Below, one piece after another: positions 1,829 through 19,311 of a stretch of DNA of 64,000 nt. Positions within the stretch are counted from its first letter, which is position 1; every line of letters starts with the position of its first letter. The notes beneath the pieces are model-generated. The model saw nothing but the letters and a program-made list of their open reading frames with translations, was not told the origin of the DNA and did no database searches. The DNA is from a candidate division FCPU426 bacterium. Its GTDB lineage: Bacteria; Oederibacteriota; Muellerivitia; Muellerivitales; Muellerivitaceae. The stretch is from assembly GCA_963796105.1 (NCBI GenBank), contig CAWCKJ010000004.1, positions 512,001 through 576,000 of the forward strand, given 5' to 3'. Made by a program: the position numbers and the translations under genes.

Positions 1829-2839
1829 AATCCGGGGGACCTATCAGCTTGAGGTCGCGGGTATGGACAAAAGCGGATGTGGCTTTATCAGGGGTAACAA
1901 TTGGCCAAAACCCAAAAGTGATGAATGTTCAAATGCCACCCGCTGCGGTGCGGGGGGCCAGGCCCCTTTTTTGCTGACACATGCCCACAAGAGCAAGCGA
2001 GACATGTTCCCGGGGTGGGTATTGATACTGATCTAAAGTGTAAAATGTAGCCTTTTGTCCCAGGGACCCAGCTAAAACTATTTCCACTTATACTTTTCAA
2101 ACCAGGCAAAAGGAAAATCTTGGTTAGAGAACCTTTAAAGATAATGATTCCCTCTAATAGGTGCCGAACACGATGCCTGCGGAATTCACAGTAACACCAG
2201 ATTGGCCTAAAAACTCTACTTCGAATACCCCCCATGTCCCCCAATTAGGCCAGGTATTTCCCGGTGGTTTGAATTTCCGGATTCGAATATCTCCTTAATT
2301 CATCACGGCTTGTTTATTCATCTAATTCGGGGTTGGCTACTCTTTCCCTTTGGTTTTGAAATGTGAAAAATCCATTACCCAATCCCTCATTGGCCGGCGT
2401 TTTAGCCACCTGAAGGCTTGGCTGGTATGGTAAAGTTTTTATCGGAGGGCTAATAATTCCCTATCAGGTTTTCTTCTATTCACAAGGGCACGGATGAATG
2501 AATCTCCAGGGTAACGGCGGCACAAAATCGCAAACCAACAACTCCGCTTTGCGCGAACCAATAACGAAACACGAAGGATAGCATGCACAAAATCTTAAGA
2601 TTTTTTCAGGATAAGCCTTTCTTGTCCTCCTTCCTCTTGGTTCTTTTCCCCATAGCCCTGTCTTTGGTTTTGTTCAGGCCGTATTTTTATAACATCGATG
2701 ACTCTTTGATCCTTCTTCTACTCAAGGGTATGGGAATAGCCACCTCTCCCAGCGAAATGGTCCAATATGTTAATGTGCTCCTTTGCTGGGGCCTGTCGTA
2801 TCTCTACCAAATATTGCCGAATTTACAATTATATAGCTC

Positions 2840-3827
2840 AATGCCTCTCCAAACGGTACCTGTTGAAATAAAGGAATACAGGAGTATACTCATTGTTGGA
2901 GGGGCAAATTATGAACTACCAACGGATGAAGGGGATTGAGATTTTCAAGGAAATCGATACAGAAGAAAAGGCACGTCAATGGGTGTGGAAGAGCCGTTTT
3001 GCCGGAAAAGACTTTGTTTGCCCACAATGTGAAGGAGAAAGTTTCTGGCAACACAAAAACCGCCCCGAAGTGCGGGAATGTGACTATTGTCGAAAGCAAA
3101 TACGGCTTCGAGCCGGAACGATCTTCCGGAAATCCAAGATCCCAATCTTAACCTGGTTGAGGATGATTGGATTGGTGATGCAAGGGAAAAGGGGCATTTC
3201 AGCCCTGGAACTTCAGCGGCAATTGGGAATGCCCTCCTACGATACCGTTTGGAGGATGTTGCATAAGATTCGGGAAAGTCTTCGACAAAGGGATGAAAAT
3301 TACCAACTCAAGGAAATCATTGAGTTGGATGGGGCTGTATTCGGCAAGAGAGAAAAGGAAAACCAGGCTGAAGTGCTGGTGGCGGTTGAAAGCAAAGAAT
3401 GGATAGATGAGAAAGGGCGCAAAAAAGAGAAAGCGGGTTTTGCAAAGATAAAGGTGACCGCAGAAACCAAGTGGGAAGCCCAAGCATTCGTCGATCAAGC
3501 AATCCAGAAAGGCGCCATGATAAACACGGATGCCAGTCCCAGCTTGAGAAACTTGGAAAACGTGGATGTGGAGTACCAGGTAACAGCCAATGACCCAGTG
3601 GTGTTAAATCACTGGTTACCTTGGGTCCACCGATTCATTTCCAACGCCAAGGCTTGGATCCTAGGAACCCATCATGGAGTCAACGTGAAATATCTGCCTG
3701 GATACTTGAGCGAATATACTTATCGGTTCAATCGTCGCCATGACCCAGATTCCTTATTTCACCGGGCCTTAACCGCTTGCGCTTTGGCAAAACCCATTAC
3801 TGCGCAAGCGTTGTTCGGATAGGCATG
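2840..3827 (+). mobile_element. IS1595-family element (ISSod11-like group), 988 bp, with 8-bp target site duplication
   Basis: TATAGCTC at 2832-2839 and 3828-3835. Imperfect 15-bp inverted repeats AATGCCTCTCCAAAC (2840-2854) and GTTCGGATAGGCATG (3813-3827). Confidence 0.93.
2893..3822 (+). CDS. IS1595-family transposase (true start probably ATG 2911 or 2926)
   Basis: Zn-ribbon CPQC...CDYC, HTH (GISALELQRQLG), catalytic region ELDG / NTDAS / LPWVHRFISNAK, C-terminal YLSEYTYRFNRR. Confidence 0.93.
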   Translation: MLEGQIMNYQRMKGIEIFKEIDTEEKARQWVWKSRFAGKDFVCPQCEGESFWQHKNRPEVRECDYCRKQIRLRAGTIFRKSKIPILTWLRMIGLVMQGKRGISALELQRQLGMPSYDTVWRMLHKIRESLRQRDENYQLKEIIELDGAVFGKREKENQAEVLVAVESKEWIDEKGRKKEKAGFAKIKVTAETKWEAQAFVDQAIQKGAMINTDASPSLRNLENVDVEYQVTANDPVVLNHWLPWVHRFISNAKAWILGTHHGVNVKYLPGYLSEYTYRFNRRHDPDSLFHRALTACALAKPITAQALFG

Positions 3828-5526
3828 TATAGCTCTTTCCAAGTTCTAACGCTCTTCCTTTCTTTTTGGGCCATCCTGGCTTCCATTCTATTGGGTCCCC
3901 ATGGAAGCTTTAGAACAACGCTATTCCTTTTATCGTCTTTGGGTATGGTTTTCCTTTTTTTCTCATTGTTGCAATACACTCAAACAGCTTCCATGGCCGC
4001 GATAGGAAGTATTTTTCTTTTAGCCAGTCTTTGGAATTCGGAAAACCCGAAGCACCAATACAAAATATTTGTTCTTTCTTTCATTTTGATTCTTTGTTCC
4101 ATCACGCTTCGGGCGGCCTCATTTTCCCTAATCCTTTTGACAGCCATACCTTCCATTGTTTTTCTAGTTTGGAAAAAAGAAGTGACTCCTATTCGTAAAT
4201 CCATTATCCGGTTTCTGGGGTGCACTGCCGTGATCGCGCTCGGGGTTATTTCTTACCATCACTATGTTTACAACAACGATCCAGCTTGGGCGGATTATCT
4301 ACAATTCGAGGCCCCCCGGACGAAATTAAGCGATTATCAGGATCCCGTCTATGATGAAACCACCAAGCCTTTATTCGATACCATTGGTTGGACAAAAAAT
4401 GATCTGTATATGTTTCAATGTTGCGTTTATATGGACAAGAACGTTTATACCTACGAGAACCTTAAAAAAATCGCAGATTACATCCCTAGGGTAACTTTCA
4501 ATAAGCACAAAGACTCTTCCTCCTTGGCTGTTTTTACCAATAAATCCGTTCAAACCGCTATTGTGTTTTTCTTGGCGTTTCTTTTATTTCTCCCCGCGGG
4601 AAGGCGACGTTTAGCCGCGGTAAACGCAATATGGGTTTTCTTCATTCTCTTATTCCTATTGCTTTACCTCAAAATCCCAGAGCGCGTTTGCCTTCCCCCG
4701 ATATTGTTCATTATGTACATGAACCTCTTCGGGACCCATCCTCCGGGACAGGATTCGGGTTCCGGAAAGTCCTCGACCGTTTGGGGGTCCAAGGCGAAAT
4801 ACTCACTGGTTATTTTGGCGTTCTTGTTTTCTTTTCTTCTGGTTCAGGACGTCTATATCGTCAACCGTCAGAAAATTCTCGAGACTGGCGTCCTGAATGA
4901 ATCATTGAAAGGCATCCATCCTCGGCAAAACCAATTGTACGTGAATTTGCTTTCGTCATTCCCTTTCGAGTTGATACCGGCTTTCGACAGCTTTGACGCG
5001 CTGCGAAACATCAATTTCATCCAATTGTCCTGGAACCAACGCTCGCCCACCACCGAAACCATGCTGGATAAATTCAATATCCACAATTTGTTAAAAGACA
5101 TGGTCGATAATCCGAATTTCTTTTTAGTGGTCTTTTCGGACACGAGATCGCCAACCATCCCTAATTTTTTGGCTACCTTGCGAACCTATTTGAAGGAAAA
5201 ATATTCCATTGAAACCTATTTAGAGCAGGCTTATAAGTGCCCGGTTTTTTGGCTGATCCGGTTCCACTCCGGGAATATCCCTCCAAGCCGAAAAGCCATA
5301 GAGGTTCAAAGCAGGTAAAAGGGGAAATTCGCTCTAGAGAGCCTTTAAATAAAATGATTTTCTTCTACCGGCATCCCCCTACTTTCACCATTGGGACGCA
5401 TCCCCATCCCGTTTTAACAAATTCTGACCACCGTCATTTCCTTCATCAAGCGAAAGCGAACATATGAACTTGATTAAATCAAAACATCCCAAGTTATAGC
5501 ACTTTCTCGTCCTATATCTTTTCGTT

Positions 5527-5535
5527 TGCTATAAT
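5527..5535 (+). promoter_or_regulatory. Extended -10 promoter (TGCTATAAT), probably leaderless
   Basis: Perfect TGnTATAAT ending 7 nt before ATG 5543; no Shine-Dalgarno. Confidence 0.6.
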
Positions 5536-5542
5536 CCTCCCC

Positions 5543-7463
5543 ATGGCCAATCAATCCTTCCAGCAGGCGCGGCCTCAATCACATACGCGGGGTTCATTAT
5601 TCACGAATCCCTGGTCTTGGGCCCTTTTTTTCAGCTTCATTCTACTTGTCCTATTAAGCGCGCATTACATCCAAGATCCAGAATCTCGGTTTCCACCTAA
5701 AGGGTGGCCAGTGGATCCTGCAAAACCATTGCGTCCCTACCAAAGATACTTACACCTATACGGTTCCCGACCATGATTACATTGACAGTCATTGGCTTTA
5801 CCAGGTTTTTCTTTACTCGCTTTACTGTGCCGGCAGTTATCCCATACTGACCTTATTTAACATTCTCTTGTTAATCGCGGTTTTTTCATTCGTATGGTTC
5901 CGCCTCCGGTTGACCGGGGCGCCTTTCTGGATGTCCACGCTATTATTCGCCTGGGCTATTTGGGAATGTGAAATCCGCTTCCAGGTCCGGCCTGACATCC
6001 TCAGTTGGCTGCTGATGAGCGTAATGCTTTGGATATTAGAGCAAAGAACCTTTCAAAAAAAAGACCTTCTTTTCATGCTCCCTATTATTCAAGTGCTATG
6101 GGTAAACACGGAGGGCTTATTCATCCTGGGATTAGTTCTGATGGCGGTTTATTTTTTTTCGGATCTTTTACACAAGCATCGGCCGGACAAGAAAGCCTTG
6201 CGTTATTCCTGCCTTTCAGCCTTTCTGTGCCTGGCAAACCCATATTTTTTCCAGGGGTTGTTATTCCCCTTCAATCTATGGAAAACTCTTCATTCCAATT
6301 TAATACAGCCCAATATCAGGGAATTCATGTCACCCTGGATCCGTTTTGGTTTTTCTTCCATGCCGGATTTACAGCTTTGGGGATACAAATTATTTAGTTT
6401 ATTCCTGTTTATCACGCTGTTAATGACCCTCAAAAAAAGAAAAACCCACGAGTTCCTCACGGCTTTTATTTTCTTTATTTTATCCGCGACAGCTGTCCGG
6501 AACATCCCTCTTTTCATACTTACCTGCGCGCCAATTCTAATGAATTGTTGGAAAGATTTGGAATGGGCCTGGATAAGGGACTTCCAAAATAAAACATTAT
6601 CAAAGGCATGGGCCGGGTTATGTTTTTTGGGCTTGATAATCGTTTTATGCGCGAGGGTTGTCACGAATGCATATTACTTGGATGACCTCAGGCCGCCCCG
6701 CTTTGGAATCGGGATCAATGACGAAGACCAGCCCGTTCAGGCAACTTGTTTCCTGGCCGCGAACCATTTAAACGGGAGGATCCTAAATTCATTGAATACC
6801 GGAGGTTGGCTGGACTGGGATGGGCCCTCAAAAACATTCATCGACGGACGCCTGGAGGTGATGGGGGAAAGTTTATTTTCCGAGTTCATCTCGTCTGAAT
6901 ATCCCGGAAAGGTGGCGTCATTGGCCGACAAATACGCCGCCGACATCATTTTTTTCAAGACATCGGATTGCATGCAATGGGTTTTCGACCTTCAAAACAA
7001 CACCAATTGGCGGGCGGTTTACATGGATGGCGAATACGTGATTTACCTCAGGAAAAACTACGCGCCCTTGGTGGAAGCTTTGGACGACGCCCGGATCATG
7101 GCTGAAAACAAATTACAGCCCCTGGACGCGAATCAAGTCTTTGACCTATTGCGCTTGCCCGTTCCTGCCTCCGGGAGCTTGTTTTTAAGAGGCTTTTACG
7201 CGCCGGCGGATTATCCCGAGAGGCTTGTCAACATGGGGACTTTCTATTTCGTGTGCAATCATCCAAAAGCCGGCGAGGCGTTTTTCCTGGAAGCCATCCG
7301 CCGCTCGGGTGGTATTTACTCAAATGTTTATTACTTACTCGGCGTCTGTTATTACCAATATAAACGCTTCGAGGAGTCCCGGTTCTGCCTGGAGAAAGTC
7401 ATAAAAATGGATCCGACCAACCCGTTGGCCCGCCAGCTTCTCGGAAAACTTCACCCCGGATAA
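5543..7463 (+). pseudogene. Polytopic membrane protein with C-terminal TPR, paralogue of 12994-14907, with a +1 frameshift near 5682 (real lesion or sequencing error)
   Basis: Deleting one A in GAAT (5681-5684) gives DPDLGFHLKGGQWILQNH, matching DLDLGFHLRGGQWILQNH of the paralogue, and joins ORFs 5543 and 5868. Confidence 0.85.
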
Positions 7464-7615
7464 ACGCCATAACATTCAGGAATTTTTCCACCTTCCCATG
7501 GCCAAAAATTCAACGGATGAATTGAATTTCCGTAAAAGGGGTCAGTCATTAATTAATAAGGGAGAAGACCCATACTTTAGAAAATAATTCCTATTTTGAG
7601 CGGAGAATAATTGCC

Positions 7616-8185
7616 ATGCCTCTATCAATACCAGCGCTTCTAATCATTGATGTGCAAAAAGCCATTGACCATCCGAGTTGGGGGCACAGAAATAATCCCG
7701 AAGCCGAATCGCAGATAAGCGGGCTTTTGGCAGCTTGGCGCAAAGCTAATGGCCCGGTAATTCACATCCGTCATTTCTCCAGCAACCCAAAATCAACCTA
7801 TAGACCCGGTCAGGAAGGCTGTGAATTCAAGGAACTGGTACTTCCAATGTCGGGAGAACTGATCATTACGAAGAGTGTTCAAAACGCGTTTATCGGAACT
7901 GACTTGGATACGTTTCTTCGTTCGCGGCAAATTTCAAGCCTTGTCATATGCGGTGTTATCACCAATAACTCGGTAGAAACGACTGCGCGCATGGCTGGCA
8001 ATCTTGGATATGAGACTTATGTCGTAGCTGACGCAACCGCCACATTTGACAAAATCGACTTCAATGGACAGCTTCGATCCGCCGATGATGTGCACGCCAT
8101 GTCACTAGCAAACCTTCGCGGAGAATACGCCACTATTCTTTCTTGCGCACAATTGTTGGAACGTTTTAGGTTAATCCCCTCATAA
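7616..8185 (+). CDS. Isochorismatase/cysteine hydrolase family protein
   Basis: ALLIIDVQ, VIHIRH, ITKSVQNAFIGT, GVITNNSVETTAR and VVADATATF motifs; RBS GGAG. Confidence 0.9.
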   Translation: MPLSIPALLIIDVQKAIDHPSWGHRNNPEAESQISGLLAAWRKANGPVIHIRHFSSNPKSTYRPGQEGCEFKELVLPMSGELIITKSVQNAFIGTDLDTFLRSRQISSLVICGVITNNSVETTARMAGNLGYETYVVADATATFDKIDFNGQLRSADDVHAMSLANLRGEYATILSCAQLLERFRLIPS

Positions 8186-8303
8186 AAACCGAAAACGGGT
8201 GCGAAAAGCCATCTTTAGGCGTTATTTGCCGATTTCTGACCCTTTTCCTGAAATGAGTCCACAATGGGGGAGGTGGTAAGAGGGATTTAAAAGGTGGCTA
8301 GTC

Positions 8304-8726
8304 ATGGCAACGGTATGGGCGTTTTTTCTTTCTTTGGTTGCGATGGTCGGCTCGTTTATCGGCTGGGTTTTCCTGAACATGCAAAAACTTTATAAAAAAG
8401 AGAACATCGAGAGGGCCCAGAAATTTTACGAGGAAGGCGAGGCCCACTTCGCGAAAAAGAACTACAAGGACGCCAAGTGGAATTACGCTTTGGTCAGCGA
8501 GTTTTACGGCAAGCCCCATACAAACTGGCTGGACCTGTCGGTTGAGAAAGAGTGGATCTGCCGGGCCTACCTGAACGAATGGGCACCCTCCAAGGGGCCT
8601 TCCTATGAGGATATCAGACTGACTCAGCCTAAGCTCTACGCGAAATACAAGCCCACCCTCGACCAAGTCACTCCGGTTATGCCCGTCAAAAAACCAAAAA
8701 AGAAAAATGACCGCCGCCGGAAATAA
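8304..8726 (+). CDS. Small membrane-anchored protein with one TPR-like helix pair and a basic tail
   Basis: N-terminal hydrophobic helix; AQKFYEEGEAHFAKKNYKDAKWNY; RBS AAGGTGG. Confidence 0.7.
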   Translation: MATVWAFFLSLVAMVGSFIGWVFLNMQKLYKKENIERAQKFYEEGEAHFAKKNYKDAKWNYALVSEFYGKPHTNWLDLSVEKEWICRAYLNEWAPSKGPSYEDIRLTQPKLYAKYKPTLDQVTPVMPVKKPKKKNDRRRK

Positions 8727-8733
8727 AGTCGTG

Positions 8734-9026
8734 ACACAACTTTATCAAATTTTTTGGAAGTTGGTTCTTCCCCCCTCTGAAAGAGGGGGATTAAGAGGAA
8801 GTTAGATTTGTTTCGGGGTTTAGCAACAACTAATACCCCCCTATCCCCCTTTTTCAAAGGGACTTATTTACTTCACTCCCGAAAGGACGATATGCCCGCA
8901 AATAAACAAAAAACGCCTGAAAAAAAGAAGGCAAAAGAAGGAAAAGGGAGTTAACTATATAAGCCCCTTTTCAAAGGGGGGGATAGTTATCTAAAGCATT
9001 CCTTTCGGAATTTGCCAAAGTTGAGT
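8734..9026. repeat. MITE/REP-like intergenic element
   Basis: Imperfect 18-bp terminal inverted repeats (8734-8751 and 9009-9026, 15/18 match) enclosing three CCCC-TTTTCAAA-GGGG-type palindromes. Confidence 0.55.
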
Positions 9027-9108
9027 TCGTGAGTAGTTTTTATATCCCCAAACGAAGTGGGGATAAGGTTAAAATCGGATTCTTGAACACCCCCTTTGGA
9101 GAATCCGC

Positions 9109-11196
9109 TTGGTCTATTCGAAAAAACTTCTGATTGGTCCCCTGCTATTCCTGACCGCCTTTGAGTTCGCCTTGCTGGGGCTCAATCCAACCTTTTACGC
9201 GGATGACAGCCCCGAAATCATCACCGTCGCCGCCGCCTTGGGCGTGCCCCACCCGCCCGGTTATCCCCTCTATATGTTGTTGGGCCGGCTGATGTCGTTA
9301 CTCCCCCTTCCCCTCTGTTTCAGCGTCAACCTGCTTTCCGCCCTCTTGGGCTCGCTCATTTGCCTTCTTGTCTTTTTCTTGTTGAACAAAAGATTTGAGG
9401 TTCCCGCTTTCATCAGCGCGCCCTTCGCGTTCCTCTGGATGGCTGGATTGTCCTCCTACCCTTCCGCCCTGAGCGCCAAGAGAGGCATTTATGAGCTCGC
9501 GGGGGTTTTCGTCCTGGCCATTCTGGCGAGCCTGTTGGACGGGCGCCTGAAACTGGCGGCCTTCCTATACGGCCTTTCCCTGGGGGGCCATTGGATGACC
9601 ATGTCCGTTTATGGGCCGGGCCTGTTGGTCCTGGCCTATGTAGAGTCCCGGAAAAAACCTTGGAACCCCCGCCATCTGATTAAGCCTGCCTTGTTCTTCC
9701 TGATGGGTTTATCCCTATATCTTTACCTTCCCTTGCGGGCGGTGAATGAACCGGTAGTGAATTGGGGTTATCCCGCCCATTGGGACCCTTTTCTCAAGCA
9801 TCTCACCCGCTATGTGGACAAGGGGCGGGATTTCACCACGGACGCGGGCCAATGGTTCCAAACCTTGGGGCTTTACCTCCGAATGGCTTTTTCCGAATTC
9901 TTTGGCCTGGGATTGCTGGCCTTGGCGGGTTTGGTTTTTGAATGGAGGAAAAACCGCTGGAGGGCTTTGGGTCTGTTGTTGACTTGGGTAGGGCTGGTTG
10001 CCTCCATCAGTATCTTCTCCAAATATTCTGGTAAAAGGCCCCCGCTTCTGGAGGATTATTCCGTTTCGTCCTGGGTTTTAGTCGCTCTTTTATCGGGCCT
10101 CGGAGCCTGGGGAATAATCGGTTTCCGCGAAAAGTGGCGGGTCCGCGCCACAGCGCTCGGCGCTGTACTCTTAGCCCTTTCCCTCGTTGGGGTAGGCTAC
10201 CGCGTCGCGAACAACAGCCAGGCCCACTACACCTGCGTTTATGATTATGCCCTCAATTCTTTCAAGTCCCTGCCGTCTAACGCCTTGTTCTTTTGCGCGG
10301 GGGACGAACTGCAATTCCCCAGCTGGTATTTCCAATTCGTGAAAGGCGTGAGGCCCGACCTTTGCGTGGCAGGGTCCAGTTTGAGTATGGATTGGAACCG
10401 CATCCAACTGGCCCGCCTCCATCCGGGCTTGAATGTTCCTTACCCCCGGCACGACCCAAGCAAGGTCTATGACTTCGATCCTTTCATTCCCTGGATGATT
10501 CAGAACAACCCCCAACGCCGTTTCTATTTCACCTTCCCGCCCTCGGACGCGGGTCTGGGTGACTTAGTCCTGGCCCCACTGGGCCTTGCCCAAGAAGGCG
10601 CCCCGCCCCCAAGAAAACCCCTTTTCGAGGAAAACACCAACGATTCATTCTGGGCGAAAGCGCGCTTGAGACATTTGAACCCGCCCTATTCCTCGGTTGA
10701 TCTTCGCTCTTGGAATACCCTACTGGAGGACTACGGGGGCAAGCGCCAGCAATTGGCCCTCCATGAAATGAACCAAGGTGTTCTCCTGGAATCCTCAATC
10801 TCTTCCAGGAAGCAAGCCGGAGAATGGTACGGGAAAAGCCTGGCCAACCTGATGGCGATTCAGGATTGGAACCCCGAAAGTTCCCAAAACGTCATTGACC
10901 GGGGACCCAACTACATGGGCTTGGGGCCCCTATTGCACGCGGTGGTATTCCACCAGAGTGTTCTTTTGGACATCGGAGTCGATTATTTTCACTTAGGGGA
11001 CCTGGACCAGGCGGGGCTCTGGATTCAAAGGGCCTCCCTCTCGGTGCCTAATGACGCGGATCATTATTACTACGCGGGGCTGATGTCCTACCAGGCGAAC
11101 AATTACCCGGATTCCAGGAAATGGCTTCAAAAGACCCTTCAGGCCGATCCCAGCTACACCAGGGCCAACCAACTTCTGCAATACTTGAACCGATAA
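9109..11196 (+). CDS. DUF2723 / TMEM260-like GT-C membrane glycosyltransferase with C-terminal TPR
   Basis: YADDSPEIITVAAALGVPHPPGYPLYMLLG and YLYLPLRA..P.VNWG signatures; multiple TM helices; terminal TPRs. Confidence 0.88.
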   Translation: MVYSKKLLIGPLLFLTAFEFALLGLNPTFYADDSPEIITVAAALGVPHPPGYPLYMLLGRLMSLLPLPLCFSVNLLSALLGSLICLLVFFLLNKRFEVPAFISAPFAFLWMAGLSSYPSALSAKRGIYELAGVFVLAILASLLDGRLKLAAFLYGLSLGGHWMTMSVYGPGLLVLAYVESRKKPWNPRHLIKPALFFLMGLSLYLYLPLRAVNEPVVNWGYPAHWDPFLKHLTRYVDKGRDFTTDAGQWFQTLGLYLRMAFSEFFGLGLLALAGLVFEWRKNRWRALGLLLTWVGLVASISIFSKYSGKRPPLLEDYSVSSWVLVALLSGLGAWGIIGFREKWRVRATALGAVLLALSLVGVGYRVANNSQAHYTCVYDYALNSFKSLPSNALFFCAGDELQFPSWYFQFVKGVRPDLCVAGSSLSMDWNRIQLARLHPGLNVPYPRHDPSKVYDFDPFIPWMIQNNPQRRFYFTFPPSDAGLGDLVLAPLGLAQEGAPPPRKPLFEENTNDSFWAKARLRHLNPPYSSVDLRSWNTLLEDYGGKRQQLALHEMNQGVLLESSISSRKQAGEWYGKSLANLMAIQDWNPESSQNVIDRGPNYMGLGPLLHAVVFHQSVLLDIGVDYFHLGDLDQAGLWIQRASLSVPNDADHYYYAGLMSYQANNYPDSRKWLQKTLQADPSYTRANQLLQYLNR

Positions 11197-11303
11197 TTCA
11201 AGGACAGCCATTCAAGCCTACTGGTTTGCTCCATCGGATTTTTCAGAAGCCAAATAAGGAATACTGTGTTTGCCGGTCCTTAAAACACGATTCCCTGAAG
11301 CCC

Positions 11304-11334
11304 GAAACTTTCAACCGGTGTATGACGTCTAATG
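11304..11334 (+). promoter_or_regulatory. ECF-sigma-type promoter GAAACT-N16-CGTCTAATG
   Basis: Matches the ECF -35 AAC / -10 CGT pattern; a second copy lies at 49220-49250. Confidence 0.55.
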
Positions 11335-11370
11335 ATGTGACGCCGTAAATAACGCTGGAGGGGTCTGAAA

Positions 11371-12003
11371 ATGAATAAAACATGGTTGGTGTTGGGAATT
11401 TTATCCGCCTTTTGGGGGGCCTTCCTCCGTCCGGCCCAGGCCCAGGTCCAGGTGGGCATTTCCGTGGGAGGCGGCGGCGACAGCTTCCACTTGGCCATCG
11501 GCAATTATTACCACGCCCCTCCCGATCAAGTGGCGGTCTGTACCCAAAGGCATATTCCCGACGAGGAAATGCCGGTGGTCTTTTTCATCGCCGGACAGGC
11601 CCGCGTGGCGCCTGGGGTCGTCGTCGACCTCCGGTCCCAGGGAATGCCCTGGTTTGAGATTGTCCGCCACTTCCGCTTGAGCCCGAGGATTTTCTACGTG
11701 CCCATGCGCGGCCCCGTGGTAGGAACCCCCTATGAGCGCTTTTACGCCTACTACAACAGACGGGGGGCCCGGGTCCGCCTGATGGACTCGGATTTCGTGA
11801 ACATGGTGAACCTGCGCTTCGCCTCCGAGTATTACCACCGCACACCGGAGGAGATCGTCCGAATGAGGGCCGGGGGGCACAATTACGCCTATATCCACAA
11901 CCAATACCGCGCCCAGCCCGCGAATCAACAACCGCACCATTTCAACAGGCGGGACGATCGCAGGGATGACCGCCGCGATGACCGCAGGGACAACGGTTAT
12001 TGA
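11371..12003 (+). CDS. Secreted hypothetical protein with a C-terminal (RDDR)n tail
   Basis: Signal peptide ending AQA; RBS GGAGG; high-GC3 codon pattern. Confidence 0.75.
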   Translation: MNKTWLVLGILSAFWGAFLRPAQAQVQVGISVGGGGDSFHLAIGNYYHAPPDQVAVCTQRHIPDEEMPVVFFIAGQARVAPGVVVDLRSQGMPWFEIVRHFRLSPRIFYVPMRGPVVGTPYERFYAYYNRRGARVRLMDSDFVNMVNLRFASEYYHRTPEEIVRMRAGGHNYAYIHNQYRAQPANQQPHHFNRRDDRRDDRRDDRRDNGY

Positions 12004-12080
12004 GGTTTCAAAAAGCCGATCTTCTTCTCCCGATTATCAAAAAGTAGGATAATGCCCTTGTCTCTAATTGAGGAGGTAGT

Positions 12081-12971
12081 TTGAAATTTTTTGGGTTTTT
12101 ATCCTTATCCTTATTCCTGGGCGCCGTTAACAACCTTTGGGCGGTCCCCGTGACCGTCGAGAACATCAACTACAAGGTCACGCTCTCCGAGACCCTGCCG
12201 GGCCTGGACGACCAGATTGTCGCCCAAGCCGGACCCACCATCAACGTGACGATCCTGGATAAAATGCGCAACACCAGGATGATCTATCCCCTTCCGGCCT
12301 ACGCCGTCCATTATTACTTCCTTCGGGACGAGGCCTTGGACCTGGTTTGCCGCACCACCCTCCGGGGGGCCGAGGGTGGCCCGCGCTACACCTTCCTCCA
12401 GTTGAATCTTTCCAACGAGCAGGATTCCGGCCAGTTCCAAAACCTGAAGCGTTTTTTCTTCTCCCCCGACGGCCAGTTTCTCCTGGCGGTCCTGGATGGC
12501 TCCGGGGCGCCGGACCCTATCGTCCTCATGCGCCTCCAGGAATCGCCTATCAAGGTCGGATGGCTCTATTCAAGCAAGAACAGTGTCAATTATTTCGGGC
12601 GGGCCCTTCCAGCCATGGCCCAGGATGTTTTCTTGAACGATGCCGTGGGTTGGTCGGCTGATTCCTCCACCGCGGCTTTCGTGCTTTCCGCCCCCGACGG
12701 GACGAAGGACGCCCAAGGCCAGCCGGTCCTGAGGGATTTCCTGGCATGCCTGCGTTTGAGCGGGGAGGGTTTCCGGGTGTCGGCCCAGCCTTTGGACCTT
12801 TCTTCTTACCATTACCACCACGGTTCCGTGATCACGGACATCAAATGCGACGGGGGAAAAGCCACCCTTTTATTCGTCCAGAGCGACTCCTCGCAGAACC
12901 TGACGGCTGAGTTTCCCCTCCCGCCCGATACCCCCGCCCAGGAGAAACCCGCCCCGACCCCGGCGCCTTGA
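12081..12971 (+). CDS. Secreted hypothetical protein with a Pro-rich tail
   Basis: RBS GAGGAGG before the TTG start; signal-peptide-like N-terminus. Confidence 0.7.
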   Translation: MKFFGFLSLSLFLGAVNNLWAVPVTVENINYKVTLSETLPGLDDQIVAQAGPTINVTILDKMRNTRMIYPLPAYAVHYYFLRDEALDLVCRTTLRGAEGGPRYTFLQLNLSNEQDSGQFQNLKRFFFSPDGQFLLAVLDGSGAPDPIVLMRLQESPIKVGWLYSSKNSVNYFGRALPAMAQDVFLNDAVGWSADSSTAAFVLSAPDGTKDAQGQPVLRDFLACLRLSGEGFRVSAQPLDLSSYHYHHGSVITDIKCDGGKATLLFVQSDSSQNLTAEFPLPPDTPAQEKPAPTPAP

Positions 12972-12993
12972 GATCAGGGTAATCCAAGCCTTA

Positions 12994-14907
12994 TCAAGGG
13001 AGACTATTGAGCACCTGTAGCGCCACGGGATTGGAAGGATTGTCCTCCAGCACCCGCTTCATGCAAAGCCGGGCCTCGTCATATCGTTTGGTCGAGTTAT
13101 ATAAAAGCCCCAGGCTGTAATAGAGTTCGCCATACCTTCCTTCGGACCGCCGTATGGCCTCCAGCAAGAACGCCTCTCCAGCTTTCAAATGCCCCTCCAG
13201 CAACAGGAAAGACCCGGTCCAAAAAATCCCGGTGGGAATATCGGCGCTCCTGTAAAAGCCCTCAAAAAAGGATTTCCAGGCCGTGACCCCGGGGAGCCGC
13301 AATAATTCCGGAGACTGGTTGAATATGTCCGCCGGCACCTCCCTTTCCTCCAGGAACTTGGCGTCTTCCTGTTCCGGCACCCAGGAGGCGTAGCCTCTAC
13401 GGAGATAAATCGCGGTAAAGCCGTCCAGGTAAACCCGCCGCCAATTGCGGTTGTTCGGAAGGTCCGCGATCCAGTGGGTGAAGAGGCTGGGATTGATGAA
13501 AAGGATGTCGGCCTGGTATTGGTTCGCCAGGGGGTCCAAGCCCCCGGGATTCTGGGACACAAGGTACTCGCCGAAGAGCTGGTCCCCCATGACTTCCAGG
13601 CGCCCGTCCATGAATACTTTCTGGGGTCCCTTCCAGTCCAGCCACCCGCCGGAATTCAAGGTGTTCAAGATCCTGCCGTCCAGGCGGTTCTTCGCCAGGA
13701 ATTCCGCGGCTCTCACCGGCTGGCTGTTGTCGTTCACCCCGAGGCCAAACCGCTCGGATCTCCTGGAGTCGGCGTAATAAGCTCCTGTGACGATCCTCAA
13801 GCCGAAAGCCAGGATTAGCAGAGTGAAAACCCCCGCAGCCCAGGGAGAGGAAAGGAATTTTTCCTGGAATTTCCGAAGCCCTGTCCATTGAAGGTCATTC
13901 CAACAGGCCGCGGCGGCCGGCAGGCTGGCGAGCATGAATAGGGGAATGTTCCGGTTGGCCATGGCGGAAAGGACAAAGAAAACCGACGCAAGGAACAGCT
14001 CATGGGCCTTCCTTTTCTTGAAGGTTGCCAGGAGCAGGAACAGCAGGAAAAAACTGTAAATCTTGTAAACAAGGACGGGCCCCCCGGGGAGGGGGGAGTT
14101 CTGGGCCGAGACCCAGGGGGATACAAGCTCGCGGATATTGGGGCGGAAAAGTTCCGAGTTGAGGATTTTCCAATTGGAGAAGGGATAAATCGCCCCCTTG
14201 AGGAAATAGGGATTGACCAAACAAACAACCAGAGCCAGGGCGCTCCATTTCAGCATCTTCCGGTCGATCCGTCCTTCATGGATCACGCTGGAAATCAGGA
14301 ACAAGCCCATCACTCCCCATCCCAGGACGAAAAGGCCCTCGACGTTACCCCAGAGGATTTGGATCAAGGGCAGGAGAAACAACCAGTTCCGCCGCTTCGC
14401 CTCCTTTTGCTCCAGCACCCAAATCATGAGGCCTAAAAACACCCAGCTGAGTATTTCAGGCCTGACTTGGAAGCGGATCTCGGAAATCCACGCTGCCGCG
14501 CCCATCAACAGGACGCCCATCCAGGAGGAGGTCCCATTTGACCTTACGCGGAACCAAGCCAGGCCGAAGGCCGTCAGGATCAGGATGATGTTGCAGAGGG
14601 ACAGGAAGGAATAACCCCCGGCCAGGTATGCCAGGTAAAGCAGGACCTGGTAAAACCAATGGATATCCAGGTACTCGTGGTCCGGAACGCTGTAGGTATA
14701 GGCGTCTTTTAAGGGCACCCAATGGTTCTGGAGAATCCATTGGCCTCCCCTCAGGTGAAAACCCAGGTCCAGGTCCGTGATGAACCGGGCCGCCAAAAGG
14801 GCGGTTAAAAGGAAACAGGAAAGAAGGGGCCAGAACCAGGGATCGGGGAAAACACTCCGTTTGGAAGAGGCTTCACTGGCGGGCGCTTGGGCTGGATTTG
14901 AAAGCAT
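12994..14907 (-). CDS. Polytopic membrane protein with C-terminal TPR (putative GT-C glycosyltransferase)
   Basis: DLDLGFHL..G motif after TM1, RPE loop, NPY, GGWL.W...VFMDGR periplasmic motif, terminal TPR. Confidence 0.85.
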   Translation of the reverse strand: MLSNPAQAPASEASSKRSVFPDPWFWPLLSCFLLTALLAARFITDLDLGFHLRGGQWILQNHWVPLKDAYTYSVPDHEYLDIHWFYQVLLYLAYLAGGYSFLSLCNIILILTAFGLAWFRVRSNGTSSWMGVLLMGAAAWISEIRFQVRPEILSWVFLGLMIWVLEQKEAKRRNWLFLLPLIQILWGNVEGLFVLGWGVMGLFLISSVIHEGRIDRKMLKWSALALVVCLVNPYFLKGAIYPFSNWKILNSELFRPNIRELVSPWVSAQNSPLPGGPVLVYKIYSFFLLFLLLATFKKRKAHELFLASVFFVLSAMANRNIPLFMLASLPAAAACWNDLQWTGLRKFQEKFLSSPWAAGVFTLLILAFGLRIVTGAYYADSRRSERFGLGVNDNSQPVRAAEFLAKNRLDGRILNTLNSGGWLDWKGPQKVFMDGRLEVMGDQLFGEYLVSQNPGGLDPLANQYQADILFINPSLFTHWIADLPNNRNWRRVYLDGFTAIYLRRGYASWVPEQEDAKFLEEREVPADIFNQSPELLRLPGVTAWKSFFEGFYRSADIPTGIFWTGSFLLLEGHLKAGEAFLLEAIRRSEGRYGELYYSLGLLYNSTKRYDEARLCMKRVLEDNPSNPVALQVLNSLP

Positions 14908-14914
14908 GTGAAGG

Positions 14915-14923
14915 ATTATACCA
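14915..14923 (-). promoter_or_regulatory. Extended -10 promoter (TGGTATAAT), probably leaderless
   Basis: TGnTATAAT ending 7 nt before ATG 14907, the same geometry as at the paralogue. Confidence 0.6.
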
Positions 14924-14943
14924 AACAGTCCATCGGTTGCTTC

Positions 14944-17097
14944 TTAATGCCTGGAATGTTCCGCGAGGACTTTCGCTTTTCGGAAATTTTCCTCGGCCAA
15001 ATCCTCCCGTCCCATTTTCCGGTAGGTCAATCCGAGCTTTTGATAAATGCCCGGATTGTCGGGCTGGAGGGACGAGGCCCTTCGGAGCAAATCCAACGCT
15101 TCCGGGAACTTTCCGGATTGAAAGTCAATGAAGCCCAGGTTGAGGTAATAAATGACTTCGTTCGGGTCGGCCGAGATTCCCTCCTGGTACAGCTTCGCCG
15201 CCTCGGCGTAATTCCCCCCCTGGGCGTATAAATTGGCCAGGTTGACCAGATAACTTTGGTTGTCGGGGTCCAGGGAAACGGCCTTTTGATAGGCCGCGAA
15301 GCTTTTTTCCGGTTGTTTCAAATACCAGTAGCTGACTCCCAGGTTGTTGTAGGCCGAGGCCAGGTCCGGGTCAAGTTGAACGGCTTTTTGGGCTTCCGCC
15401 AGGGCTTCATCGTAATTCCCGGATTTCTGGTAAACCTTGCTGAGGTTGGAATGAGGAATGGCGTTTTTGGGGTCCTTCTCGATCGAGGTCTTGAACCAGG
15501 CCGCGGCGTCCTCCGCCAGGCCTTTCGAGAAAAGGCAGGTTCCCTTGGAATCATAGGGCGCGGAGGGGGCGGGATCTGCCGCGATGGCCTGGTCGAAAGC
15601 CCTGATGGCCTCGTCATAATGTCCCGCGTCCTGGTAGGCGTTTCCAAGTTCCGAGTAGGTGATGACGGAAGTCTCGGAATGGACCCTCACCGCGTTTTCC
15701 CAAAGGGCGATGGAATCCTTCCAGGTCGCTGATTGGAGGAAGGTTCCATAGCCCAGGCCGGCCGTGAGTCCCGCCGCCAGGATTGGGAATAAAAAACGCC
15801 GCTTTGAAAGAATAAAGACCGCCAGATAGGCAAAAAGCAAAAATGGACCCAGGCTCGGAAGGTAGGTGTAACGGTCGGCGGAGGTCTGGAATCCGGCTTG
15901 AAGAATTCCCAGCACGGGAAGAAGGGTGATGAAATAGTAAAGGCTTCCCGCCGCCAGGTATGGCCGTCTCTTGAGCCAATAAAGGCAAATCCCCGCCCAT
16001 AGGACGGCTAAACCGACGCAAAGAAGCTGCCCTGCGGAAAAGGCCTTTGTTTTTTCGGTGATGGGATAAAAAGCCGCCAATCCCGATGGAAAAATCATTT
16101 TTTCAACGTAAAAGACCAAGGAGTGAAAAGCGTTCATGACGCGGATTCCCAGGGGAATATCCTGTGTTTTCAAAACAGCCTCGCCTTTGAACTGGGAAAG
16201 GACCGTCAGCCAGCCGCACAACAGACTCGCGATGAAAAACGGGATTTTTTCCAAATAGACCTTCGCCCCTTCTTTTGAAAATCTCCCCAACGGCCAAAAA
16301 TCCAAAAGAAATAAAACCAAGGGAAAGGAGACCGCCATGGGTTTGGATACAAGGGCCAGAGAGAAGAGCCCCAGGCAGGCGGCAAGCCTCAATCCCTTTC
16401 CCCGCGCGGAGCTGGCATAATCCAAGTAAAGCAGGAGACCTCCCAGGTATAAGAACCCGCAAAGAACGTCTTTCCTTTCGGTGGCCCAGGCCACGGATTC
16501 CACATGGAGGGGATGGATCCCAAATAGAAGCGCCGCGAGAAAGGCCGCTTTGACTTCATTCCGGCCGCGCCCGGGGTTCCCTTCGGTTTCCTTCCGGTTT
16601 CCCGCCAAGTTGAGAATCCTCCGGCAAACCAGGAAAACCAGCCCGGTATTCAGGGCATGAAGGATCAGGTTGGTGAGGTGATAAATTCTCGGGTCCAGGC
16701 CTCCCATCCAAAAATTCAGGGCCAGGGAAAACCATGTGAGGGGAATCCAATTACTGCAATAAAAAGCGTTGAGCATCCAACGGATGGAAGCGAAATCCAG
16801 GTGACGGATATGGAGGTTCTTGACGATGAATTCACTGTCATCCCAATTGACGAAGCCGTTGTTCAGGGAGGGAATGTAAACCAGGACGGTGATGAGGACC
16901 ACGAGGACCAGGGCCCATCCATCGCGGTGGGTACCAGGCTCCCGTGCCGCTCCCTCTTTTAATTCAGCGACCTTTTCACAGGGTCTCTCGATGATCTTGC
17001 GGACCTGCCTGGGGCTCAAGCCGGTTCTACCAGCCAATTCCTCCAAAGGGAGGGACCGGTTTTGAAGGACAAACTCTCTTTTTTCCTTTTTGGACAA
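14944..17097 (-). CDS. TMTC-like GT-C protein with a long TPR array
   Basis: NGFVNWDD, YHLTNLILH, LFGIHPLHVESVAWATERKD and ADRYTYLPS motifs; about 7 TPRs. Confidence 0.9.
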   Translation of the reverse strand: MSKKEKREFVLQNRSLPLEELAGRTGLSPRQVRKIIERPCEKVAELKEGAAREPGTHRDGWALVLVVLITVLVYIPSLNNGFVNWDDSEFIVKNLHIRHLDFASIRWMLNAFYCSNWIPLTWFSLALNFWMGGLDPRIYHLTNLILHALNTGLVFLVCRRILNLAGNRKETEGNPGRGRNEVKAAFLAALLFGIHPLHVESVAWATERKDVLCGFLYLGGLLLYLDYASSARGKGLRLAACLGLFSLALVSKPMAVSFPLVLFLLDFWPLGRFSKEGAKVYLEKIPFFIASLLCGWLTVLSQFKGEAVLKTQDIPLGIRVMNAFHSLVFYVEKMIFPSGLAAFYPITEKTKAFSAGQLLCVGLAVLWAGICLYWLKRRPYLAAGSLYYFITLLPVLGILQAGFQTSADRYTYLPSLGPFLLFAYLAVFILSKRRFLFPILAAGLTAGLGYGTFLQSATWKDSIALWENAVRVHSETSVITYSELGNAYQDAGHYDEAIRAFDQAIAADPAPSAPYDSKGTCLFSKGLAEDAAAWFKTSIEKDPKNAIPHSNLSKVYQKSGNYDEALAEAQKAVQLDPDLASAYNNLGVSYWYLKQPEKSFAAYQKAVSLDPDNQSYLVNLANLYAQGGNYAEAAKLYQEGISADPNEVIYYLNLGFIDFQSGKFPEALDLLRRASSLQPDNPGIYQKLGLTYRKMGREDLAEENFRKAKVLAEHSRH

Positions 17098-17158: not shown

Positions 17159-18277
17159 TCAAGCGAGGGAACTGCTGGACCCGGGTCCGAATCTCATCTC
17201 CATTTTCTCCAGCGCCAGTTCCTTGTCCATCGGAACTTGGAATTTCTTCTTGTCGCTGGCCTTCAGGTAGGCCTGCCGGGCGCTGATCTTGCCGGCCTGG
17301 TAGAAATTCATCAGGCAGTGGTCCATGGTCTGCATGCCCAGCTGTCCGCTCATCTCGATGAGGGAGGTGATGCCGGAAATCTTGCCGGTCCGGATCAGGT
17401 TCGGGAGGCTCTTGTCGTAATTGAGCACCTCCACCGCCGCGCAGCGCCCCTTGCCGTCCTTGGTGGGACAAAGCTGCTGGGCCACGATTCCCTTGAGGGC
17501 CGCGGCCAGGGCGTCGCGCGCCTTGTCCCTCTCGTCGGCCGGATAGACGTTGATGATGCGGTCGATGGTTTTCGAGGTGGAGTTGGTGTGCAGGGTGGCC
17601 AGGACCAGGATGCCCATCTCGGCCGCGGCGATGACGAGCGAGATGGTCTCGTAATCCCTCATTTCCCCCACCAGGATGATGTCCGGGTCCTGGCGCATGG
17701 ACGACCGCAGGGCCGCCTTGAAGGAATGGGTGTCGTGGTGGACCTCGCGCTGGGTGATCTTGCACTTTTTCATGTAGTGCACGAACTCGATGGGGTCCTC
17801 GATGGTGAGGATGTTGGCCTCGCGCGTGTTGTTGATCTCGTCGATCATGGCGGCCAGGGTGGTGCTCTTCCCGCTGCCGGTGGGGCCGGTGACGAGGATG
17901 AGGCCCCTTTTCACCTTGCACATCTCCCGGATGACCGGGGGCATGCCGAGCTGTTCCAGCGAGAGGATCTTGGTGGGGATGGTGCGGAATACCGCGGCGA
18001 GCCCCTGCTGGTTGAAAAAAACATTCGCGCGGTACCGGGCCAGGTCCGGAACCTCGTAGGCGTAATCGTAGTCGCGCTTCTGCCAGCACAGCTCCCATTG
18101 CTCCGGGGACATGGTCTCGTAGATCCAGGACATGATCATGTCCTCGGTGATGACCGTCTCATTCAAGGGGGTGAGGTCCCCCCTTACGCGCACCAGGGGG
18201 GGATTGCCGATGGTGAGGTGCATGTCGGACGCCCCCAGTTCCACCATGGCGCGGCATAGTTCCGGCATGGCCGCCAT
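17159..18277 (-). CDS. pilT: PilT/PilU-family type IV pilus retraction ATPase
   Basis: ASDMHL, GPTGSGKSTT, TIEDPIE, RQDPDIILVGEMRD, TLHT, GMQTMD. Confidence 0.9.
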   Translation of the reverse strand: MAAMPELCRAMVELGASDMHLTIGNPPLVRVRGDLTPLNETVITEDMIMSWIYETMSPEQWELCWQKRDYDYAYEVPDLARYRANVFFNQQGLAAVFRTIPTKILSLEQLGMPPVIREMCKVKRGLILVTGPTGSGKSTTLAAMIDEINNTREANILTIEDPIEFVHYMKKCKITQREVHHDTHSFKAALRSSMRQDPDIILVGEMRDYETISLVIAAAEMGILVLATLHTNSTSKTIDRIINVYPADERDKARDALAAALKGIVAQQLCPTKDGKGRCAAVEVLNYDKSLPNLIRTGKISGITSLIEMSGQLGMQTMDHCLMNFYQAGKISARQAYLKASDKKKFQVPMDKELALEKMEMRFGPGSSSSLA

Positions 18278-19311
18278 CAGGACACCTCCGCCAGGATCTC
18301 ATCGGCCAAGGCCTGGGTGATTTTCTTGGAAGCCACCAGGGCCTTGAGGGAAGCCTCCATGGTCTGCATGCCCTGCAGGATCCCCGTGGCGATGACGGAC
18401 GGGATCTTGAAGAAATCGCCCTCCCGGATGACGTTGGCGACGGCGGTGATGTTGGCCAGGATCTCGAAAGCCGCCACCATGCCTGTCCCCTCGGCGTTGA
18501 CCAGGAGCCGCTGGGAGAGGATTCCCACGAGGTTCTCGGCGAGACTCACGATTGCCTGGGGCTGCTCGCCCGCCGGGAAAAGGCTGACGACGCGGGAAAT
18601 CGTGGAAGTCGCGGAGCCGGTATGAAGGGTGCCGATGACCAGGTGGCCCGTCTCGGCGGCGGTGAGGGCGAGGCTCATGGTCTCGTGGTCTCGCATCTCC
18701 CCCACCATGATGATGTCCGGGTCCTCCCGCAGGGCGCTTCGAAGGGCGTTGGTGAAACTGGCCGTGTGCGTCCCCACCCCGCGCTGGTTGACCACGGACT
18801 GCTTGCGGTGGTGGATGTACTCGATGGGGTCCTCGATGGTGATGATGTTTTCCTCGGTGGTCTCGTTCAGGTAATCCACCAGGGCGGCGCAGGTGGTGGA
18901 CTTGCCGCAGCGCCCGGGACCCGTGATGAGGATGATGCCCTGGTTGGCGTCCGCGAACTTCTTGAGGATGGGGGGAAGGCCCAGCTCATCGATGGTGCGG
19001 ACCTTGGAGGTGAAATGACGGAACACCGCGTCCCACCCCCGGCGCTGGCGGTAGGCGTTGAGCCGGAACCTCTCTCCGTTGGAGAGGGAATAGGTGGTGT
19101 CGATTTCCCAGGTTTCCTTCAGGTGCGCGAGGGCGTTCTCGTCCAGGATCTCGAAAATCAATTCCTCGCATTCCTGGGCGGGAAGGGGTTTATCCGTGAC
19201 GGGCAAAAGCCTGCCCAAACGCCGGACGCAGGCGGGCGATTCCGAGGCGATGTGAAGGTCGGAACCCTTTTGGTCGATGCAAGTTTGCAGGTAGGAATCG
19301 ACTTTGGGCAT
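18277..19311 (-). CDS. pilT: PilT/PilU-family type IV pilus retraction ATPase
   Basis: GSDLHI, GPGRCGKSTT, TIEDPIEY, ALREDPDIIMVGEMRD, AETGHLVIGTLHT. Confidence 0.9.
   Translation of the reverse strand: MPKVDSYLQTCIDQKGSDLHIASESPACVRRLGRLLPVTDKPLPAQECEELIFEILDENALAHLKETWEIDTTYSLSNGERFRLNAYRQRRGWDAVFRHFTSKVRTIDELGLPPILKKFADANQGIILITGPGRCGKSTTCAALVDYLNETTEENIITIEDPIEYIHHRKQSVVNQRGVGTHTASFTNALRSALREDPDIIMVGEMRDHETMSLALTAAETGHLVIGTLHTGSATSTISRVVSLFPAGEQPQAIVSLAENLVGILSQRLLVNAEGTGMVAAFEILANITAVANVIREGDFFKIPSVIATGILQGMQTMEASLKALVASKKITQALADEILAEVS

Follow-up and report, generated by a model that had tools for sequence, protein, structure and literature searches.

An expanded set of GT-C-type families in an FCPU426 bacterium: a candidate periplasmic protein-glycosylation toolkit

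The 64,000-nucleotide stretch of DNA analysed here (the window; G000:C4:512001-576000) belongs to the genome of a candidate division FCPU426 bacterium (G000; 4.98 Mb, 96.8% complete). It carries an array of five polytopic membrane protein genes, named below by their positions 2583, 5543, 9109, 12994 and 14944. All five are members of GT-C-type glycosyltransferase families, four families without sequence kinship to each other, and the cluster is a sample of a GT-C expansion that extends across the genome and the taxonomic family. Family membership, paralog counts, retained catalytic-type residues, donor-synthase-like genes and many secreted Thr/Ser/Pro-rich proteins were observed directly. With moderate confidence, the expansion is interpreted as a multi-family periplasmic protein-glycosylation toolkit, in which the members bearing tetratricopeptide repeats (TPRs) would use polyprenol-linked donors to glycosylate secreted proteins.

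The gene array and the genome-wide census

The array comprises the following features.

2583..2839, + strand: 5' part of a GT-C gene with the IDD motif, cut by IS1595; 59% identity to the N-terminus of the intact paralog
2840..3827, + strand: IS1595-family insertion sequence, transposase at 2893-3822 (PF12762, NF033547), with an 8-bp target duplication
3828..5318, + strand: 3' part of GT-C gene 2583, no TPR, no Pfam match; 72% identity to the intact paralog
5543..7463, + strand: predicted STT3-fold "FIDGR" family GT-C with TPR, frameshifted near 5680; 50% identity to the 12994 gene
9109..11196, + strand: TMEM260-like GT-C with TPR, 695 aa, intact; PF11028 at 70.9 bits, human TMEM260 (9rql) at E 3.1e-21
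12994..14907, - strand: predicted STT3-fold "FIDGR" family GT-C with TPR, 637 aa, intact; model pLDDT 92, STT3/PglB/AglB Z 19-22
14944..17097, - strand: TMTC-like protein with a long TPR array, 717 aa, intact; TPR Pfam, motifs and homolog names

A first-pass annotation had described five polytopic proteins in 15 kb, each with an acidic motif just after the first transmembrane segment (TM1). The starts were confirmed and three of the five genes are whole, but 2583 is split by the 988-bp IS1595 element, with the target duplication at 2832 and 3828, and 5543 is frameshifted. The motifs IDD (2583), ADD (9109), DLD (12994) and WDD (14944) are read in the sequence, whereas the DPD assigned to 5543 lies at the frame switch itself and is not readable in one frame. 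This lesion may be real or an assembly error. The pilT ortholog of a sister species (L020 = G001:C24, 6668-7808) is also split across two frames, so frameshifts in the lineage may be of either kind. The IS1595 element is present in the genome in 24 full-length copies at ≥99.9% identity and appears to be in a recent burst. Another, at C2:469993, has fragments of a PMT_2-type gene on either side. C-terminal TPRs, previously attributed to four of the proteins, are strong in a Pfam scan of 14944 and exceed the cut-off in the 3' part of 5543, while 9109 and 12994 score below it and 2583 shows none. The TPRs of 12994 are backed by its predicted structure (TPR match, Z 12.3). A single operon was ruled out, since the genes are found on both strands, with other genes in between; the content of the array also differs in the sister species. 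A promoter scan at the array gave a signal below the shuffle level.

For the census, 297 polytopic open reading frames (ORFs) were clustered and the clusters extended with profiles. A 7-member cluster first taken as GT-C proved to consist of major facilitator superfamily (MFS)/spermidine synthase proteins and was dropped, reducing the count from 122 to 115 GT-C-like ORFs. Eleven more singleton membrane proteins were scanned without a GT-C Pfam match (one DUF2298), and none was counted. The census includes 54 PMT_2-type ORFs (2 of them fragments), 20 FIDGR (1 frameshifted), 14 TMTC-like, 14 YfhO-like, 11 TMEM260-like and 2 of the 2583 type. Assignment relies on Pfam for most PMT_2-type and all TMEM260-like ORFs, on one Pfam match plus similarity for the YfhO-like ORFs, on a predicted model for the FIDGR and 2583 types, and on motifs alone for the TMTC-like ones. 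PF13231 has 50 matches in the genome and PF11028 has 11, and phmmer searches with 12994, 14944 and the YfhO-like gene at 50829 found 20, 14 and 12 relatives, respectively. With the 7 dropped genes still included, the GT-C genes sum to 264,694 bases, or roughly 5% of the genome. Profile-profile comparison among the families of the genome linked only PMT2a with the TMEM260-like family (95.6%) and was otherwise mostly uninformative.

The idea of an expansion was borne out far beyond the locus where it had been proposed; that the locus itself is the system was not supported. It is one of 11 arrays with at least three members and the densest of them; five starts within 12.5 kb were reached in 38 of 2000 random placements (115 ORFs, 4.98 Mb). 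Each of 25 family genomes holds 15-63 PMT_2 and 4-12 TMEM260-like matches, and 16 more distant genomes hold 3-47 PMT_2 matches each. To our knowledge, ordinary bacteria have only few such genes; the controls in this analysis showed presence rather than counts. The sister species retains synteny of the TMTC-like, FIDGR and TMEM260-like genes with pilT and has one additional PMT_2 gene and a second FIDGR copy in tandem there, while its closest matches to 2583 and 5543 sit on other contigs. A pilT ortholog occurs in 19 family genomes and adjoins a listed TMTC-like or FIDGR gene, the only two types considered, in 3 of them (G000, G001 and G011), a count to be read with many of the assemblies being fragmented.

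Two side observations concern array composition. In a WOR-3 record (L008, 1609-9893), the neighbours of a FIDGR gene are a PMT_2-like gene and two more polytopic genes of similar kind; other uncultured phyla may therefore have mixed arrays too. A Wzy_C/O-antigen-ligase search of G000 gave ten matches; the protein at C4:85962-88967, which has two of these domains, is encoded inside the six-gene GT-C array. These proteins are possible PglL-like O-oligosaccharyltransferases.

Relationships to known protein glycosyltransferases

The identification of array members as TMEM260- or TMTC-like holds for 9109 and 14944. For 12994 and 5543 it was replaced, on the basis of fold ranking and motifs, by an STT3/PglB-like family referred to here as FIDGR. 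The predicted model of 12994, built from 103 sequences, was compared by Foldseek and VIA. All of the top 16 VIA rows are oligosaccharyltransferases (OSTs), with Z 18.2-22.1 across 425-466 residues. Human OST-A is the best match (Z 22.1, root-mean-square deviation (rmsd) 4.6, 451 aligned), with PglB at 19.9 and AglB at 19.1, followed by Pmt4 (Z 17.6 over 323 residues), ArnT (15.8) and DPY19 (15.7). The match to STT3/AglB/PglB (GT66) spans the membrane and periplasmic domains. The listed fold matches do not include TMEM260 or TMTC, though these may still match.

Conservation in FIDGR was assessed in 148 aligned sequences, namely the query plus 140 newly added representatives and 7 previous matches. 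D47 is conserved in 93%, R149 and E260 in 99% each, R319 in 87% (K in 11%), and D434-G-R in 96/88/95%. By order and secondary structure, D47 would correspond to the first DXD of OSTs, E260 to TIXE, R319 to the phosphate-site Arg, D434-G-R to DGGK and G420 to the WWDYG Gly, as these motifs are defined in the available portions of PMC8342417 and PMC3527161. The Asp in the first external loop (EL1), xIxE, Arg and DG motifs follow the order seen in STT3/AglB/PglB, and some FIDGR paralogs carry TINE or TIKE. The place of WWDYG is taken by T416-L-N-S-G420, of which only the Gly is conserved (94%) while T416-L-N-S varies; the G420-D434 spacing of 14 equals that between G461 and D475 in C. jejuni PglB. 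The second DXD motif in EL2 is replaced by R149-P150-E151. On this mapping, FIDGR keeps the EL1 Asp, the TIXE Glu and a DGGK-like motif, and lacks WWDYG. In OSTs the +2 Ser/Thr is held in a pocket made by WWD, so FIDGR falls outside GT66 and is not expected to recognise N-x-S/T in the OST manner. In further contrast to STT3/AglB/PglB, 12994 has about 11 membrane helices instead of 13 (own reading of the model) and an added C-terminal TPR region, and the family lacks an STT3 Pfam match and has 20 paralogs in one genome. The canonical STT3 core (PF21436) was not found in the 81 phylum genomes searched.

FIDGR is a large family, with 16,644 representatives (50% identity clusters) at E≤1e-30 and 39,345 at 1e-3. 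No fitting Pfam or NCBIfam family was found in a scan of 25 FIDGR domains, and a sequence search of the PDB with the membrane domain gave no match. In the atlas, 30 FIDGR matches have no shared Pfam and are named "hypothetical protein" in the rows listed, with Dpy19, PMT_2 and STT3 clusters next. Four FIDGR paralogs share 92-99.9% DNA identity (G000:C5:50612-52636, C6:320456-322480, C16:19003-21027 and C12:301846-303801). Those on C6 and C16 adjoin a gene pair that, read by eye, resembles conjugation genes; mobile elements may therefore carry the family. Near one copy, at G000:C6:309296-315097, an ORF of 1314 aa is followed by a Cas4/Cas1-like ORF; judged from the N-terminal sequence, this looks like a type V CRISPR locus.

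The gene 9109 exceeds the PF11028 cut-off of 24.2 bits almost threefold and is homologous to human TMEM260 (CAZy GT117) over residues 22-451, with the same layout of GT-C, periplasmic domain and TPR. In the HMMER alignment, D33, H48, R234 and G398-D399 align to human D52, H67, R264 and G440-D441. According to the available part of PMC10214176, which already mentions distant bacterial TMEM260 homologs, D52 is required for activity. The accessible text of a preprint (bioRxiv 10.64898/2026.03.17.711096) describes D441 as catalytic on the acceptor side, H67 and R264 as donor-binding, and R355 and Y267 as mannose contacts; it further reports that the TPR is sufficient for peptide binding and that TMEM260 reads an extended peptide. 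Across the 11 TMEM260-like paralogs of the genome, the human having a single gene, the D52 and H67 columns are kept in 11 of 11, D441 in 10 of 11 (one E) and R264 in 9 of 11. In contrast to the human enzyme, 9109 has no equivalents of R355 and Y267, which align to D316 and D237 in the sequence alignment. The human client features were not found either: PF01833 (IPT/TIG) had no match in the genome, with the control positive in 2 of 14, and the TMEM260 sequon P-x5-P-x3-G-P-x2-G/A-G-G-x2-T/S had none in 20,874 ORFs. From these alignments, 9109 probably works like TMEM260, while the same sugar or client cannot be assumed.

The membrane domain of 14944 is matched by at least 7324 of 7998 scored candidates and so represents a common bacterial family; many of the listed homologs are named "protein O-mannosyl-transferase" by JGI. 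It was compared with the seven TMTC motifs given in the available portion of PMC7801869, equivalence being judged by motif order and not by alignment to human TMTC. D86-D87, R208-K-D210 and D408-R409-x-x-Y412 are conserved to at least 90% in 82 sequences. Like human TMTC1-4 (GT105), 14944 combines a membrane domain with a long TPR array and has, in TMTC order, DD (M1), RxD (M3), the M4 Lys and DRxxY, a form of (D/E)RxxY (M7). It differs in having NWIP in place of SHKSYRP (M2) and KPM(A) in place of KE(T/Q)xxT (M4), where the Glu is changed. The DW motif was not seen in the motif comparison, and DUF1736 (PF08409) had no match in the genome, a search in which the positive control was equally silent. 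A PDB sequence search with the membrane domain gave no match. The protein is classed as TMTC-like, with apparently altered sugar and metal motifs.

The 2583 family was modelled from the intact paralog (G000:C16:64671-66431; pLDDT 89.5), for which the top 20 of 48,161 chains are all GT-C-fold entries. ArnT is the best match (Z 13.9, rmsd 5.5, 434 aligned), and no protein transferase fits better than ArnT, ALG12 and AftA (Z 12.7-13.9). The family is predicted to be GT-C with an acidic motif after TM1, and no subfamily is preferred. The GT-C fold and catalytic Asp position expected of the array are present in the predicted models of 12994 and the 2583 paralog, and in the alignment of 9109 to human TMEM260.

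Donors, acceptors and competing explanations

The search for a polyprenol-phosphate-mannose synthase, suggested by the first-pass annotation, returned a synthase-like gene at G000:C3:81254, which matches the Pyrococcus Dol-P-Man (dolichol-phosphate-mannose) synthase 5mlz at E 1e-32 and has a FIDGR gene 2 kb away. There are 22 GT2 genes in the genome. Eight short ones were scanned, and all eight have lipid-phosphate-sugar-synthase models among their best NCBIfam matches, all below the cut-off. On the acceptor side, 84 ORFs contain at least 150 residues of Thr/Ser/Pro-rich tract, compared with 0 of 2374 in a shuffled pool, and 41 of the 84 have a FlgD-type C-terminal domain. The genome has 68 FlgD_ig (FlgD-type C-terminal domain) and 19 PorV-family matches. 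Further features of the window relate to these components or to the neighbourhood of the array.

17159..19311, - strand: two PilT-like ATPases (PF00437), neighbours whose adjacency is poorly conserved
50829..52910, + strand: YfhO-like GT-C, one of 14 in the census; PF09586 at E 2.7e-14, weak C-terminal PgfM1/PgfM2 matches
58439..60472, - strand: PorV-family barrel with FN3 repeats (NF033709), one of 19 PorV-family matches
60469..64000, - strand: FN3 surface protein, 2194 aa in full, with its 3' part in the window and a C-terminal domain of FlgD type; no more than a candidate substrate

The gene at 50829 had been noted as a YfhO-like sixth, and Pfam confirmed it as YfhO-like. The FN3 protein contains 23% Ser+Thr and 23 N-x-S/T sites, and no Thr/Pro-repeat tract was found in it by the tract scan of ORFs. 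Traits resembling a type IX secretion system (T9SS), namely PorV-family proteins and FlgD-type domains, occur in the lineage, with 5-82 FlgD-type domains per genome in 41 of 41 genomes searched. An IS21-like transposase (rve and Mu C-terminal Pfam) lies at 1-1296 and 1359-1676 of the window; the element end shows imperfect direct repeats of 25 bp and 42/73 bp.

In the proposed toolkit, GT2 enzymes would provide the donors by attaching one or more sugars to polyprenol phosphate. The periplasmic domain and TPRs of each paralog would grip an extended peptide leaving the Sec channel, where the EL1 Asp, together with D399 (9109) or E260 (12994), would activate the acceptor, most likely a Ser/Thr hydroxyl. 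Paralogs would differ in their choice of peptide or sugar, and export of the products by a PorV/FlgD-domain route would build up a coat of glycoproteins. Gene birth, movement and loss would account for the arrays, which would not be co-regulated units. The streptococcal Pgf/PgtC2 (YfhO-family) and actinobacterial PMT systems also combine a GT2 polyprenol-phosphate-sugar synthase with an extracytoplasmic GT-C acting on Ser/Thr-rich regions, as PgtC2/PgfM1 do in the available part of PMC12041528. Those systems have one to three GT-Cs each, in contrast to about 115 of at least six types here, in a diderm with a PorV/C-terminal domain (CTD) export route.

Several observations weigh against this toolkit. 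GT-C genes show no proximity to Thr/Pro-rich genes: 14 fall within 3 kb, where random placement gives 20.5 ± 4.1. The correlation of PMT_2 with FlgD counts over 41 genomes (rho 0.61) falls to 0.18 (p 0.25) after genome size and is -0.08 within the family only. The fold matches include ArnT, Aft and ALG, GT-Cs that modify lipids or polysaccharides, and Bacillus and Listeria YfhO homologs modify teichoic acid, as stated in the accessible portion of PMC12041528. The R355 column is variable and holds Arg in only 1 of the 11 TMEM260-like paralogs, so the sugar cannot be taken as mannose. The TPRs could bind partner enzymes rather than clients, and their faster divergence is equally expected from relaxed constraint.

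The leading competitor, considered unlikely, is that most paralogs decorate lipopolysaccharide (LPS)/lipid A, glycolipids, capsule or another polysaccharide, as do ArnT, GtrII, YfhO and Aft, with the TPRs binding assembly partners. It would accommodate the 54 PMT_2/ArnT-type and 14 YfhO-type ORFs among the 115, the 2583 family with its equal fit to ArnT, ALG12 and AftA and its lack of a TPR, and the missing genomic or phylogenetic link to candidate protein substrates. However, the three intact genes of the array resemble protein-acting enzymes, as 9109 keeps the D441 of TMEM260, 14944 has TMTC-like motifs, and the best fold match of 12994 is STT3/PglB, with a TIXE-like Glu that belongs to a peptide-binding motif in OST.

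It is quite improbable that the expansion is mostly a by-product of duplication driven by mobile elements, with few working paralogs, many redundant or decaying ones and an array without joint function. Such a history would explain the two broken genes among five, the near-identical FIDGR copies on C5, C6, C12 and C16, two of them beside conjugation-like genes, and the different array content in the sister species. Yet the reading frame is fully open and the motifs are largely kept in 19 of the 20 FIDGR paralogs, and the presence of the expansion in 25 of 25 family genomes indicates that it is old and maintained.

There is little to recommend the original proposal of a locus for fold-specific O-mannosylation of beta-sandwich (FN3) domains or pilins, parallel to human TMTC/TMEM260: the TMEM260 homology with key residues, the Dol-P-Man-synthase-like gene and the FN3 and pilT genes of the window speak for it, but neither an IPT/TIG domain nor a TMEM260 sequon was found, human TMEM260 itself reads an extended peptide, the sugar-contact motifs (R355; SHKSYRP) are altered, the pilT adjacency on which pilins were suggested is kept in only 3 of 19 family genomes, the sister-species counterparts of 2583 and 5543 lie elsewhere and both genes are broken here.

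Implications for the lineage and for the OST fold

The local cluster as such is of little importance. No tested function of bacterial TMEM260- or TMTC-like proteins was found in the literature searched, and no study of bacterial TMEM260/TMTC homologs, the FIDGR STT3-fold family or this GT-C expansion was found there, most subscription papers and supplements lying outside its coverage. The 11 TMEM260-like and 14 TMTC-like paralogs of this lineage are tractable enzymes for studying the origin of animal O-mannosylation and the choice of clients by TPRs.

More is to be gained from the predicted STT3-fold family that lacks WWDYG, with tens of thousands of sequences and no family model. It is tentatively proposed that FIDGR may be a large unnamed branch of the OST fold that kept the catalytic Asp/Glu pair and, having lost WWD as its sequon reader, follows another rule in glycosylating proteins, with TPRs choosing the client. 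Its 20 copies, beside TMEM260-, TMTC-, PMT- and YfhO-like enzymes, might then form a bacterial toolkit larger than any known to us. The chemistry of this family would reveal ways of redirecting the OST scaffold and would be useful for glycoengineering.

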